Assembly: GCA_022793875.1 (NCBI GenBank)
Contig: JAAWDR010000026.1
Location: 26,296 to 90,295, forward strand
Direction: 5' to 3'
From: Clostridia bacterium
Lineage (GTDB): Bacteria; Bacillota; Clostridia; TANB77; CAG-508
Length of the DNA: 64,000 nucleotides
Part shown: one piece after another, positions 21,001 through 57,000 of the stretch
How positions within the stretch are numbered: position 1 is the stretch's first letter
Layout: each line of letters begins with the position of its first letter
Position numbers: made by a program

Positions 21001-24000
21001 AACAACAATAAATGTATTATATAGCGAAAAAATAATGTCTATCTATACAAATAGAGTTGATTTAGAAAGAAGACTATATAAAATATTAGGAGAACCTAAA
21101 AAAGAATATATAAAAGGAAGGTCTATTTTAGGTAGCTGTTGGGAAATACCATTAAATGACACGAGCAAAATCAATAAAGTTATACTAAAAGCTAATATTT
21201 ATGGAATTTAAAAAGAGTAATGAAATTATGGAGTGATACAATGTTAAGAGTAGATGTAATAACAGATTATATGAATTATTATAAAATAAGTAACAAAACT
21301 ATATCAATAGAAGATGTTGCTAAAACATTAGTAAAATGTAAAATTTTAGATAAACGAGCTAAAAAATATAACATAGTAGGATATAGTTTTGAGGAATTGC
21401 TATACAATGAATTGATGGATATAAAAGAACAGATTTGTTTTTCTTTTATGACTTTACTAGAATATAGTCTATATTATGAACAAGAAGATGAAAAACTTTA
21501 TATGATAGAACCAATATATCAAGGTATGAGTTTTTTAGTTGATATAATAAATAAAACAGGAGAAACAAGAAAGTATTGTAGATATAAAAATGTAATAAAA
21601 ACTATTATGAAGTATGAAAATGATTTTTATGATAATAATTTAAGAAATTGCAATGAAATAGAAAAAGAAATTTTAATAAAAAATGATTTAATAGAACATA
21701 CTGGAGATTTCTTATTTAATTTAGAATATTGCAGATTAGTAGATAATTCAAATAAAGAGAAATCAGAAGAATATTGGAATGCAATAATGAAATTAATTAA
21801 TACCATAGATAAGGTAGGAGAACAAAAAAATATACAATCAAATAGGAATATAGAAGAAAGTATTAGAAGAAAAACACTAACATATTTAACTAAAAATAAT
21901 AAAGAGCTAAAAGATATATTTGAATATAACATTCAGTAAACATAATTTTTTGCAAAAAGTTTGCAAAATCCTGCAGTATACATTCAATTTTTCAAGTGCT
22001 AAAATATTAATATCAAAAATTATATGTGAATGAGAGAGCTAATTAGAGAAATTTAACTAGCTTTCTTTTTTGCTGTTTTTAGGAGGAATTATGAAAGGTA
22101 TTATTAAGAGTGGTCTAGTTACAGGACTATTAGCAATGTGTTTAATGTCGAATGTATATGCGACAGATAACAAAACAATAAATAAAACAATTTTAAAATC
22201 AGAAGAAAGTAGTTTTTTAACATCAATAGAGCAAGAAATGGAAGAGAACGAAACTAAGTACAAATTATCAAATTATTTTAAAGAAGATGATACAGAAAAT
22301 TCAAAAATAGTTACAGCATATAAAAAAGATGTAATTAAGAGTAATACAAAAGAATCTATTATAAGCCACTTTGGAGATAACCTAAACTATGAAGATGAAG
22401 AGTATTCTGGTGTAATTGCCTTGAAAGATTATGATATAAAAACAATTAGCAATGGAAAATATGAAGCAATTGATGAAAAGAAAATTAACTTTAATAAATA
22501 TAGCAAAAATGATTTAGATAATATTGAAAAAGAAAAAGTTATAGGTGGCGTAACATATTCACTTATTAATGTTAATTGGAAAAATGATGAAACAGAAAAT
22601 ATTGATGGTCAAGAAGTACCAATAACTTATAAAGGTACAATGATATATCAAGCAGTAGTAACAAGAAATAATCCTTATAGTTATGAAATAACTGTTACAT
22701 ACGAAGGAAGTGTTGAAAGAAAAGATCCTATTTATTTATATACATTAGAGTATGAAAAAATTCAAGAAGAACCAATAATTGAAATTATTGAAGAAACAAA
22801 AGATTATACAGTTCCTACAATAATTATAAGTGGATTAGGTATAGCATTAGTAGTTGTTTATTGTATAGGAAAAACAACAGCAAGAGTATATGTTAAAACA
22901 GACAATGGATTCAAATTAATAAGAGTTGTTAGACTAAGTAAGAAACACAATACAATTAATTTAAGTAATTACAAACACAAAACAGTTACAAATATGTTTG
23001 CAATAAAAACTACAAATGGATTCTATAATAAAAATCAAAATATACTTATCAAAATAAAGAAAGATAAGATTACTAAAAATGTATATCTAAATAGTGCTTA
23101 TATTGATTTTATATTAGGGTAATATGGAGGACAAAATGGAATTAGAAAATGCAACAATAATAGATTTTGGAGAAGTAGAACTTTTGGCAAATAAAGAAGA
23201 ACTTTATATGGGGTTCAAGAATGAAGCAAAATTTAAAATAAATTGGTGTAGATTAAAGGATAAACCAGACCAATTAATATGTTTAAATATAGAATGTGAT
23301 AAATTATCAGAAGAGATAAAAGAAAAAGAAATACCAATAGTTAATATTACAGAAATGATTAGATTGCAGTTTATGGAATTGTTAGAAAAGGAATTAAATA
23401 GCTTTATTGGAAAAAATATCAATAATATTTCATATTTTTTTGAAAAAGACGAATATACTGACGCAAATCGAAACAAATATTATGCTAATCCAGAATTTTT
23501 AAAGATTTCAGATATTGGCATTGATTTTTTTAATGAAAATGCAAGTATAGAACAAAAATCAAAAGTTCATACATCATTTTGTATTTATGATGAAATAAAC
23601 AAATCAAAACTTAAATATAAACCTTCTGCTTATTATTCAGAAAAAATAGTAGAAATAGATATGAAAGAAAATAAAATCTTAACAGAACCTTCTACTATTA
23701 TGAATTTAGTTTATAGCGAAGTGGATTTGTGTAAGATTTTAGCATATAAACAATACGAACTAGGAATAACACCCCCTTTTTATAATGAGATAGCGAAAAT
23801 TAATAGATTTTTAAAAGATAAAAAGACAATTACAGTATTATTAAAAGATAATACAGAAATAAAAATTGAAGCAGATATAACAGACATTATTGATTTCTAT
23901 AATGGAGTATTTTCGATAAATCGAAATTTATTAAATTTATCTTATGATGAAGCAAATAGAGAAAAAGTGGATATTAATAATTTAAAAGCTTTAAGACACG

Positions 24001-54000: not shown

Positions 54001-57000
54001 TTACTAAATCCTTATGAATATGAAAATTTAAAGCAAGAAGATGAAGAATTAGAAGTTTAAGAAATATCAAGATAAAAAGAGAGGTAATGTGGTGGAGGAA
54101 GAAGATAAAAGAAATCAAGAGTTATTAATAGTAGGCAAAGCATTTTTACATACAGGAATAACAAAAATTGAAGATTTAATACAAAATTATATAAATACTT
54201 CTGAACAATACCACGATTCTTATTCTGTAGTTTTGCTAAAAAAGATAAAAGAAGACATAGAGAAATATAGAGATATTGAAAATGAGAAAACAAATGAATT
54301 ATTAAAAACAAAAGAGCCATCATTTTATATTTATACAGGTAAAATAATTAAAGTATTTGATAAAACAACACAATGTGGGTTTTGTGTTAAAAAGGATTAT
54401 ATAAATGATAAATTAGTAGAGATACAGGGGATACGTTTAGATTTTAACAATAGTCAAATTGTAGATATTGACGAAGAACAATGTAGACAAGTTGAAGAAA
54501 TATATTGTGAATCTAATAATAAATTATATCAATTATCAATTAAAGAATTTAGCAATAGAGATTATGGAAAATTATTATATGAGAATATAAGGAATAGTTT
54601 TTCAGTATTAAAAAAAGATGAGGTATTAGAAAGATAATTTCAACCTTATCTTTTTTCATATTGGACTTAAACGAATTTTTATGATAAGATAAAGAAAATT
54701 ATTGATAAGGAGAGATAATGTGTCTAATTTTGTAATAAATGAAGAAATAAAAAACAATATATTAGATTTGTATTTTACAGATAAAAATACAATGCAACAA
54801 ATAAGTGAGAAAACAGGTATAAGTAGATATTCAATTAGTGAAATATTACATAAGGATAAAAGATTTGAAAATGAAAAAAAGAATCGTAGAGAAGAAAAAT
54901 TACAACAACCACAAATAAACAAAGTTATATTTGATAAAAATGGCGATTCTTATAGTGCAAAAGTAAGTATACCTTATAAATATATTAAAAAAATAGGAAT
55001 TAGTTTAGATGACAGATTAGTTGAAGTTTCTTTTGATGAAAATAAAGATGAAGTTGTTATAAAAAAATATACAAAAAAATAAAAGTGTGCTATAATCACT
55101 CTAGCAATAAAATATGATAAAGGTGGTAGAAAAAAATGAACTTTAATGATGAAGAACAAAAACTATTTAATGAAGCAGGTATAAATATAGATAATAGAAC
55201 TTATTCAGTAGAAGAAACTAAGATGTTTGCAAATAAAATAGTTGAACATATAATGAGTTTTAGTAAACAGGAAATTCCTGTAGTAAAGAGTAAATTTGAT
55301 AATTTGCTATATAAAATATCATAAGATAGATGAAATAGAATTAAAGGAAGTTTATATATGAAGTATAATAATATTAAAAAAAAATTTTAAAGCTACTATT
55401 TTAGGAATAGAAAACGATAAATACAAAGCAGAAATTGTTGATGAGAATGGAAATAGAATTGAGATAAGAATGATTACTGATGATGAAATTGAAAGTGTAT
55501 TATTAAAAAAATAGTAAAATTTATGTTAGAAGAATTGCTTTTTATGTGATTCTTCTTTTTTGTACTAAATAATAAAAAATGATAAAATGAGAAAAAAAGA
55601 GAAACCGATTATAAAATTTTCTCAATATATAAGTGTAAGGTATCTTAAATAAAATAAGGGGTTTAGATCTAAATTGAATAAGAAGAAAATAGGAGAATAT
55701 TTAAGAAATAATGAATTAAATTTAGAAATAGTAATAGATGAATATAGTGGATATGTGTATAAAATCATTGAAAATATGGCTATACAGTATTTATCAAAAG
55801 AAGATGTTGAAGAAATAATATCAGATACATTTGTTGTATTATGGAAAAATAGAAAAAAGCTTGATAAAACAAAAGAATTAAGTCCTTATATTGCAGGAAT
55901 TACTAGAAATTTAGTAAGAGAAAAAAGTAGAGTAGTGAATATTCATAGTGATATTTCTGATTATGAGAATATCATTCAGGATTTCTTTAAATTAGATATG
56001 ATTTGTGAGCAAAGGGAAAAGGTTTCTATTATTGATAAAACTGTAAAAAAGATGAAAGAAAGCGATATTGAAATATTTGAATTATACTATTATTCATCAA
56101 TGAAATATAGTGAAATATCTGATATTTTAAATATTTCTCAATTTAGTATTAAGTCAAAATTATTTAAAATTAGAAAAAAAATTAGAAAAGAATTATTAAA
56201 AGGAGGGTATAGTGATGAAGAATAAGGAAACAGAAGAAATATTTAAAAATGTAAAACGAAAGATTTCTATATCCAACTTTGTAGAGGAGGAAAAGAATAT
56301 GCCGAAGTTAAATAAAATATCAAAAGCAGTAGCAACAATATTACTTGTGTTTGGATTAGGTACAGGACTTGTATATGCTACCACTAATTTATATGAAAAA
56401 ATATGGAAAGAACCAGAAAGCTATACATACAAGGAAATGATAAGTGAATTACCACCAGAAGAAGTAACAGAAGAAGAAAAGAAAGAATTAATAACCGAAG
56501 AAGAAGCAAAAGCAAAAGGAATTGAAATATTAGAAAAATTAGGATATAAAAATCAAACAATAAATAGAATTGAATTAAAAAGAGGTTATGATGAAGATGT
56601 TACAAGTTATTATATGGTAAAAACAAAATGGGGATATGAAGAAGGTTTAATGGTACAATTAAATGCTAATGGTGGAGATTTTATTGCATTTGATGATATG
56701 GACTTAAAATATAAGCATTTACAATCGCAAATATTAACAGATGAAGAAATCTCTAAAGTAGCAATTGAAGTATATAATAAATTAGATTTAGAAGAAGGAG
56801 AATATAAGCTTTCTAAAACAAATGTGCAAGATTATTATTTTGAAAATCAAGGTAGTAAATTACTAGGAGCTAATTTCTATAAATATTATGATAATATAGC
56901 AAACAAATATGAATCTTTTAATGTTTCTTTTATAGTAGTAGATGAACAAATACTTTTAAATACAATTTTATTAAATAAAGATAGTAGTTATCAAAAAAAT

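Follow-up and report, generated by a model that had tools for sequence, protein, structure and literature searches.

A glutamate-rich C-terminal tail shared by about 27 unrelated proteins of a clostridial conjugative element, a candidate signal for type IV secretion

The 64,000-nucleotide stretch of DNA analysed here (the window) spans positions 26,296 to 90,295 of contig JAAWDR010000026.1 in the Clostridia bacterium assembly GCA_022793875.1 (G000:C49:26296-90295 in our collection; 1.83 Mb, 26% GC, 79% complete), and lies within a predicted integrative conjugative element of roughly 90 kb. Two long co-directional accessory operons (window 22070-30748 and 39930-54637) encode soluble, acidic and mostly unnamed proteins, nearly all of which end in a 7-8-residue block of glutamate devoid of Lys/Arg, often with Ile, Leu or Val as the final residue. 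An earlier note on this DNA had proposed that the block is a signal for export into the recipient cell by the type IV secretion system (T4SS). We find that selection at the protein level maintains the Glu block as a feature of composition, and that the block characterises the element as a whole. It is very probably a shared tag under selection, and its recognition by the transfer machinery is a reading that we put forward tentatively.

All tailed genes lie on the + strand, which holds nearly all genes of the window and is strongly purine-rich. In the first operon, tails are found on a 342-aa protein (23124..24152, ENEDQGDTNEI) and its 321-aa paralogue (24121..25086, EKEELEIES), followed by proteins of 297 aa (25076..25969, QIEQESEV), 116 aa (27312..27662, AESEEIAK, which spans the following gene's GAGGAA), 178 aa (27659..28195, TEEEELNEPGE), 272 aa (28179..28997, LEEGEIENE, identical in the related element of G017) and 405 aa (28984..30201, EEEKEENEQEK). 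The second operon opens with a 143-aa protein (39930..40361, EITEEKTLEN, 19-nt gap), an ArdC with ArdcN and MPTase-PolyVal domains (40381..41400, KDENELEAVI), an NTP_transf_2 protein (41420..42202, YEEELEE) and an LPD11 protein (42203..42985, EKSEEKEI). These are followed by proteins of 127 aa (42982..43365, EDKEEDSL), 298 aa (43362..44258, with the weaker tail DREQEIKKEL and a 31-nt gap), 252 aa (44290..45048, LDEEESESI, with the ribosome-binding site, RBS, past the stop), 73 aa (45063..45284, QNEEDKQI) and 174 aa (46079..46603, YEKQESEI), the last ahead of an XRE gene. Further along are a SpoVG-domain protein (47111..47812, KETEENEL, 30-nt gap) and proteins of 353 aa (47843..48904, KEEEVEINE), 416 aa (48897..50147, AKEEELEQE, a tail that homologues conserve by position), 145 aa (50144..50581, LEEKEEIEQ), 369 aa (50571..51680, EQGEENIEVE, RBS past the stop), 278 aa (51694..52530, KQEEEQEIE) and 254 aa (53296..54060, KQEDEELEV, 28-nt gap). 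Tails also occur in the transfer operon, on a 254-aa protein (128..892, EEDEEIVIEPK, next RBS past the stop; its G358 orthologue ends EEEEELVIEPK) and a 113-aa protein (2957..3298, QEELDEEI), and on a 116-aa protein (6880..7230, EEEQDNQDFQEE, next gene 17 nt away). The NTP_transf_2 stop codon TAA (42202) directly abuts the LPD11 ATG (42203), a gap of 0 that recurs at the same junction in G017 and G358.

Counts rest on our own simple calls of open reading frames (ORFs), with Pfam names from a profile scan; such calls suffice for counting tails because stop codons alone fix C-termini. All 20 tails quoted in the earlier note were recovered at their stops. In the region 23124-54637, 22 of 38 proteins of at least 80 aa carry at least 4 D/E in the last 12 residues, against 7/34 in the remaining window and 162/1637 in the remaining genome. 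If the threshold is instead set at 3 or more D/E among the final 8 residues, 27/39 region proteins qualify and 176/1698 elsewhere, which makes the earlier figure of about 28 tailed proteins a fair one. There is no second cluster of such density anywhere in the 1.83-Mb assembly. The description of these proteins as unrelated also held, with one paralogous pair among region proteins in an all-against-genome BLAST; no host paralogue of any tailed protein, SpoVG included, was found in this 79%-complete assembly. As had been observed, HsdS, HsdR, both PAPS-reductase proteins, XRE, sortase and the loosely spaced genes lack the tail.

The excess of acidic residues is not a consequence of overall composition. 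In the 27 tightly spaced genes of the region, tails hold 126 D/E against 59.6 +/- 6.0 in random interior 12-mers of the same proteins, and 0 of 5000 shuffles reach 126 D/E, whereas the 12 loosely spaced genes of the region are without excess (27 D/E versus 21.7 +/- 4.4). Nor does it depend on overlap with the RBS of the following gene. Where the next start lies 13-35 nt past the stop, the mean is 4.50 D/E in the region (n=10) against 1.62 in the host (n=188; Mann-Whitney p=2e-6), and for overlapping genes it is 4.87 in the region (n=15) against 2.04 in the host (n=195). An origin in overlapping Shine-Dalgarno (SD) sequences would predict an excess only where the tail overlaps the next SD, which is not what we observe, and the next RBS does lie past the stop at all seven stops for which this had been claimed (892, 41400, 45048, 46603, 47812, 51680 and 54060). 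The enrichment therefore survives both controls, for composition and for RBS overlap, that the earlier note had called for.

The block is 7-8 residues long. At positions -1 to -8 of the 27 tight genes, Glu occupies 30, 44, 19, 56, 48, 48, 59 and 30% of residues, and drops to ~15% beyond position -8; host genes have 8-15% at -1 to -8. Over the last 8 residues, Glu reaches 41.7% versus 11.0% in interiors, while Lys and Arg together fall to 9.3% from 14.6% (p=0.03), with Arg at 0% and Gly near zero. Tail Glu is thus not neutralised by adjacent Lys, and the tails are net acidic in the sense used for E-block signals. Because purine-rich Lys, Arg and Gly codons are depleted rather than enriched, the tail is a feature of the protein and not of the RNA; GAA, and not GAG, the SD-like form, encodes 69 of the 90 tail Glu residues. 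The pattern had been described as a Glu block with an aliphatic residue in the last few positions. The first half stands, and the second is a weak enrichment: ILVMF occupies position -1 in 44% of tight region genes and 29% of host genes, and across the four-element family described below ILVM falls within the last 3 residues in 66% of acid tails and 53% of non-acid tails. In the same four elements, a transmembrane segment is predicted in 4/106 tailed and 63/187 untailed proteins. Tailed proteins have a net charge of -4.2 per 100 residues, untailed ones +0.3. We rejected the idea that acidic tails act as a counterweight to basic DNA-binding bodies, since the bodies are themselves net acidic. 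In the predicted fold of ArdC (mean pLDDT 88.7), the tail ends a long C-terminal helix, where confidence goes down to 65.

Syntenic elements are present in G017:C2, G358:C11 (the contig of L054) and L053, and in the four elements acid tails end 32/111, 26/53, 37/103 and 11/26 proteins, respectively. The trait is conserved: among 105 orthologue pairs compared with the window genome, 38/43 tailed proteins stay tailed and 60/62 untailed proteins stay untailed. Orthologues share 45% identity over their final 8 residues, whereas whole proteins share 68% and acid tails paired at random 27%; the tail sequence thus drifts while its composition is maintained. Orthologues of the 174-aa protein (46079..46603) keep acidic tails at gaps of 72-96 nt, and tails are also found on genes of the relatives without a window counterpart, some at gaps of 41-106 nt. 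Homologues that have just one of the two domains of the 416-aa protein, N-terminal or C-terminal, mostly still finish with a Glu run (31/41 with 3 or more D/E among the final 8 residues), and the C-terminal-domain family conserves EE[LIMW]E[QEK]E by position. Glu is kept in homologues through GAA/GAG and neighbouring changes.

Shared tails extend to other lineages, where their chemistry differs. We examined 66 of 80 ArdC loci, leaving out 14 below 8 kb, and 7 of the 66 are without ArdC in the gene calls. ArdC homologues of at least 69% identity nearly all end in acidic plus aliphatic residues (ELEEII, EMEEAI, EEEDCL), those at 40-55% identity have mixed endings (EMEM, EEEMCV, ELELEI), and those labelled Proteobacteria or Bacteroidota, or lying in such loci, have basic ends (GLRR, GIRR, RRAARIG). 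In L061 (an Anthropogastromicrobium aceti record, 41% GC), four adjacent proteins share an EEEE[LM]E[RY]-type tail: a DUF5688 protein (EEEEELER), ArdC (EIEEELER), a 2333-aa ArdC-N/SNF2 polyvalent protein (EIEEEMEY) and one of no recognised family (EEEEELER), with 57-196 nt from these genes to the next. Three proteins of L059 end EVDLEIE, AEELEI and NEELEI. L057 has ArdC ending FEMEM, a protein of no recognised family ending DMEMMM, a Toprim/DUF3991 primase ending AGMEM and a pentapeptide-repeat protein ending FEESFIE, while L060 has Arg-rich ends on a protein of no recognised family (QKKRRR), an ArdC-LPD25-YodL protein (RPRKRGR) and a pentapeptide-repeat protein (RRPHRLR). Tails were seen in elements of 38-41% GC. 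For the conjugative L057 primase, 65 of 120 clusters of homologues have a hydrophobic-[D/E]-hydrophobic ending against 2.7 expected from interiors, 77 are net acidic and 2 basic. Tail class follows the element and not the protein family, in what is a small sample with T4CP types not matched to elements: ArdC ends EAVI/EEII in the window family, EEELER in L061, (G/E)MEM in L057 and Arg-rich in L060. In L055 ArdC is 69% identical, yet tailed neighbours number 1 of 21.

Pfam and NCBIfam scans place these operons within a transfer element that begins past secA, at contig position ~9.7 kb. In order, it encodes first a replisome organiser, a topoisomerase and a ParB-like protein, then a MobP3 relaxase (C49:21476-23137) and, directly upstream of the window, a CD1115-family VirD4 coupling protein (type IV coupling protein, T4CP; C49:23863-26032). 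Window positions 128-8432 hold the transfer genes TrbL_4, T4SS pilin, PrgI-like, VirB4 and M23 peptidase, and 14070-20012 a type I restriction-modification system; the tyrosine integrase lies at C49:98433-99704. ECF-type sigma genes with adjoining putative anti-sigma or membrane genes are repeated at window 11754-13250, 55674-57369 and 62319-63942 and at contig 90.3-94.2 kb. Between the two accessory operons lie loosely spaced genes and a sortase-dependent SpaA/thioester adhesin of 1124 aa (36445-39819), whose C-terminus LPRTGE is followed immediately by the stop and a hairpin. The adhesin is without the usual post-LPxTG hydrophobic segment and basic anchor; adhesins ending LPRTGE or LPKTGE also occur in G017, L053 and G358. 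A further repeat, AAATTACAAT, has 7 copies in the window against 2.2 expected (0/100 shuffles reach 7), at 11015, 11653, 13906, 33795, 34302 and 34489 on the + strand and 20062 on the - strand. Five of the + strand copies lie 3-9 nt past the stops of loosely spaced genes, as if they marked cassette boundaries.

The reading frame of the T4CP gene is broken differently within the family. The G000 gene and that of G357 (C2, about 100.4-102.3 kb) have in common a frameshift within the DPKGE motif and stops in frame past the Walker-B LDEF, and that of G358 (C11, 17097-19257) has a different frameshift, located after Walker B; these interruptions could represent decay, a mutational hot spot or recoding. 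The middle piece of the T4CP is 98.8% identical between G000 and G358, and neighbouring genes are 50-92% identical. Many CD1115-family T4CPs of other Clostridia (L010-L039) end acidic, for example IDLSDEDAAAEE and DDEYEVIELDEE. A complex prediction with the two G000 T4CP pieces (with alignments) and the C-terminal domain and tail of the 416-aa protein, made without control runs, scored 0.00 and counts neither for nor against binding. A VirB4 search of a plasmid collection returned only matches of about 34% identity.

The accessory operons also share a sequence at their heads. TTTGCAAAAANNTTGCAAAAT occurs in 5 copies in the window against 0 expected (8731-8751, 20821-20841 (+), 21949-21969, 36287-36307 and 47064-47084), within a ~70-nt conserved region that heads accessory, adhesin and other operons. 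By analogy with the Reg576-controlled establishment promoters of p576, it is probably a shared promoter or operator. The XRE-type helix-turn-helix gene (46626..47054, + strand), which is without a tail, lies directly upstream of the copy at 47064, and we infer from the same analogy that it is a candidate repressor of the operons (PMC6294495).

How might such a tag work? The Glu block could serve as an exposed peptide through which many different proteins dock on a single common receptor, for which the substrate-receptor side of the conjugation machine, either the coupling protein or an accessory to it, would be the best candidate. On this reading, the donor would make the anti-restriction and establishment proteins, and these would pass into the recipient together with the DNA, in a manner resembling the Glu-rich effector signal of the Legionella Dot/Icm system but within a Gram-positive conjugative system. 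Four points favour the transfer machine as receptor: the tagged families, among them ArdC, polyvalent proteins and primases, are thought or known to act early in recipients; homologous proteins differ in tail class between elements; in Legionella, Glu-rich peptides at the C-terminus, read by DotM, are a proven T4SS signal; and Gram-negative conjugative systems move many plasmid proteins. That the tails are borne by soluble accessory proteins (ArdC, LPD11, SpoVG-like) is consistent with a transfer signal. Judged from sequence, the full mechanism, including recruitment of the tailed proteins to the T4SS, is plausible without being probable. What stands of the earlier T4SS-signal reading is that the tail is an element-wide, protein-level feature and no by-product of composition or RBS; the interrupted T4CP and the tailless relaxase tell against its other half.

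Known systems offer partial parallels. Glu-rich, low-pI C-terminal peptides of Legionella bind DotM and drive Dot/Icm export (PMC5802825); the window tails resemble them in a low-pI, Glu-rich C-terminus without Lys neutralisation, in the use of Glu over Asp, and in their occurrence on many unrelated soluble proteins. However, the window block is confined to the last 7-8 residues, whereas the DotM study used peptides of ~25 residues and saw no binding of a 10-mer (PMC5802825). The window machine is moreover a Gram-positive conjugative T4SS with a VirD4-like CD1115-family T4CP, and its cargo would be putative bacterial establishment proteins, whereas Legionella effectors act against eukaryotes. 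F-type systems are described as translocating many plasmid proteins (PMC8406263, PMC11288057), and the conjugative primases TraC1 and Sog as entering recipients (PMC7213743). Substrates of VirB/VirD4 and conjugative systems (Agrobacterium VirE2 and VirF; the 'conjutome' of F, pKM101 and RP4) share with our case a short C-terminal signal and maintenance or anti-defence proteins that travel with DNA (PMC11288057, PMC8406263). The Arg-rich tails of L060 and of proteobacterial ArdC resemble the positively charged VirB/VirD4-type signals, to which the window tail is opposite in charge; F-system signals are heterogeneous and often internal, whereas the window element has one uniform tail on about 27 proteins. 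The repertoire of ArdC-N, MPTase, LPD11 and SNF2 domains is that of the polyvalent proteins, with their proposed early role in the recipient (Iyer et al. 2017, PMC5512222), although in the window these domains are separate small genes; a term search of the main text of that paper turned up no shared C-terminal tail. The repeated promoter motif with a nearby putative repressor gene is also like the establishment regulon of p576 and pLS20 as described in PMC6294495. In the literature searched, on conjugative translocation signals, ArdC and polyvalent proteins, E-block/DotM, Gram-positive conjugation and primase transfer, we found no such tag, and no protein-translocation signal for any Gram-positive conjugation system.

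Several observations weigh against recruitment by the transfer machine. Among soluble proteins of the four related elements, tail frequency falls with the gap to the next gene: 54/76 at up to 4 nt (overlaps included), 5/13 at 5-12 nt, 26/49 at 13-35 nt, 9/26 at 36-100 nt, 6/37 above 100 nt and 2/25 without a same-strand downstream gene. The fall may simply mean that the genes with wide spacing are cargo and regulators, but a coupling effect would predict the same. Asp is not enriched in the last 8 residues (4.2% against 7.4% in interiors), which a pure charge signal would not predict. DotM is a receptor within the DotL/DotM/DotN coupling complex of type IVB systems, and scans of the element proteins gave a VirD4-like CD1115-family T4CP, VirB4, TrbL_4, T4SS pilin and PrgI; no Dot/Icm family, DotL, DotM and IcmSW included, appeared in these Pfam and NCBIfam scans, which included no dedicated DotM profile search. 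The T4CP gene is interrupted in all three members in which it could be placed (G000, G357 and G358), and VirB4 is split into a 203-aa N-terminal ORF (3659-4270, matching VirB4 model positions 90-289) and a 597-aa ATPase ORF (4312-6105), with the G358 VirB4 in three pieces. Since the tails are kept despite the broken T4CP, either the cognate receptor is not needed or a receptor is supplied in trans; supply in trans is possible because each of the four genomes has an intact CD1115-family T4CP on another contig. The second conjugative element of the genome (C30:17-36 kb) does have an intact 525-aa CD1115-family T4CP with an acidic, FGPIDES-like end. Its relatives G256:C1, G283:C4, G309:C10 and G045:C8 show no tail clusters, so that a T4CP of this family does not predict tails. 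The possibility raised in the earlier note that the cognate relaxase would carry the tail was not borne out, MobP3 ending NIDWGLER and its G358 orthologue SIDWGTER; this is not decisive, because relaxases can use internal signals (PMC8406263). ArdC and its neighbours correlate in tail charge with a rho of 0.31 after subtraction of interior charge (59 loci), a weak correlation over non-independent loci that is confounded by GC content and relatedness. Finally, the promoter motif and XRE gene fit expression in the recipient after entry, as described for the p576 establishment genes (PMC6294495), which would make export unnecessary, and R388 ArdC is described as acting when made in the recipient, donor expression being of no help (PMC7213743).

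Other explanations must be set beside export. If the tail were a by-product at the level of RNA or translation, either an SD-like, purine-rich coupling sequence read as Glu or an acidic nascent end that aids termination and re-initiation, one would expect what is indeed seen at many overlapping junctions, namely GAGGA or GGAGG read as Glu-Glu. GAG also accounts for 26% of the Glu codons of overlapping tails and for 11% of those in interiors, host genes overlapping the next start have a small D/E excess (2.04 against about 1.6), and tails become rarer as gaps widen. However, the excess is equally large with the SD past the stop (4.50 versus 1.62), codons for Lys, Arg and Gly are depleted despite being just as rich in purines, relatives show tails at gaps of 41-196 nt, as do elements of 38-41% GC, and homologues hold on to Glu while codons and neighbouring residues change. 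No such tails appear in tightly packed host operons, in the prophage on C10 or in the second conjugative element on C30, and tight genes of the same element, including membrane-protein genes, also go without (TrbL, pilin, M23, HsdS and PAPS reductase). We consider a by-product largely refuted and very improbable. A generic physico-chemical role without a specific partner, such as solubility, the blocking of C-terminal degradation signals in a new host or a contribution to DNA mimicry by anti-restriction proteins that are acidic already, would suit proteins that are acidic throughout, a tail whose sequence turns over at constant composition, and the weak enrichment of a terminal aliphatic residue. 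It would not explain the precise motifs found elsewhere (EEEELER on 4 neighbours, the ending of 65/120 primase clusters, and EE[LIMW]E[QEK]E by position), the Arg-rich tails on the same families in one element, or the lack of the tail on other soluble proteins of the genome, and we regard it as improbable.

The tail may instead dock on a hub outside secretion, such as the SSB-coated strand, a replisome or repair protein, or a protease or chaperone of the element; the recipient would then make the proteins, which would collect at the DNA as it enters. The model is provided by tails of the acidic-hydrophobic kind on SSB, T7 gp2.5 and gp4 and F TraD, SSB having an acidic C-terminal docking tail with a hydrophobic end. 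In keeping with such a hub, the families that bear the tag work on DNA (ArdC, primase, SNF2 helicase, pentapeptide-repeat and SpoVG-like proteins), the repeated TTTGCAAAAANNTTGCAAAAT motif and the XRE gene suggest induction on entry, the tails persist though the cognate T4CP is broken, R388 ArdC acts when the recipient makes it (PMC7213743), and F TraD's final ~15 residues are described as docking on TraM (PMC8406263). The TraD-TraM contact, itself part of conjugation (PMC8406263), and the SSB tail both resemble the window tail as short, exposed, acidic C-terminal docking peptides, but there one hub bears the tail for many partners, whereas here many tailed proteins would meet one putative hub. 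No candidate hub was found, and most tagged proteins are without a recognisable DNA-binding domain. Furthermore, homologous ArdC and pentapeptide-repeat proteins differ in tail class, acidic in L057 and Arg-rich in L060, although the hosts are similar, which argues for a partner encoded by the element and not by the host. Docking on a non-secretion hub is on balance unlikely.

Returning to recruitment by the transfer machine, the tail classes of different elements raise a broader idea. Gram-positive conjugative elements may label recipient-bound proteins with interchangeable C-terminal address tags that are read by their own coupling machinery, the classes being the Glu block, hydrophobic-Glu-hydrophobic and Arg-rich; on the sequences compared here, we regard this as possible but doubtful. 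If true, the window element would ship about 25-35 establishment and anti-defence proteins with its DNA. Should the tag prove to be a translocation signal, the injected protein set would be readable from the genome of an element, a part in establishment or counter-defence could be assigned to dozens of unnamed genes, and deletion or transplantation of the tail would offer a simple handle on protein transfer in gut Clostridia. Were the tag to serve a different hub, it would still connect about 27 orphan proteins to a single common partner.

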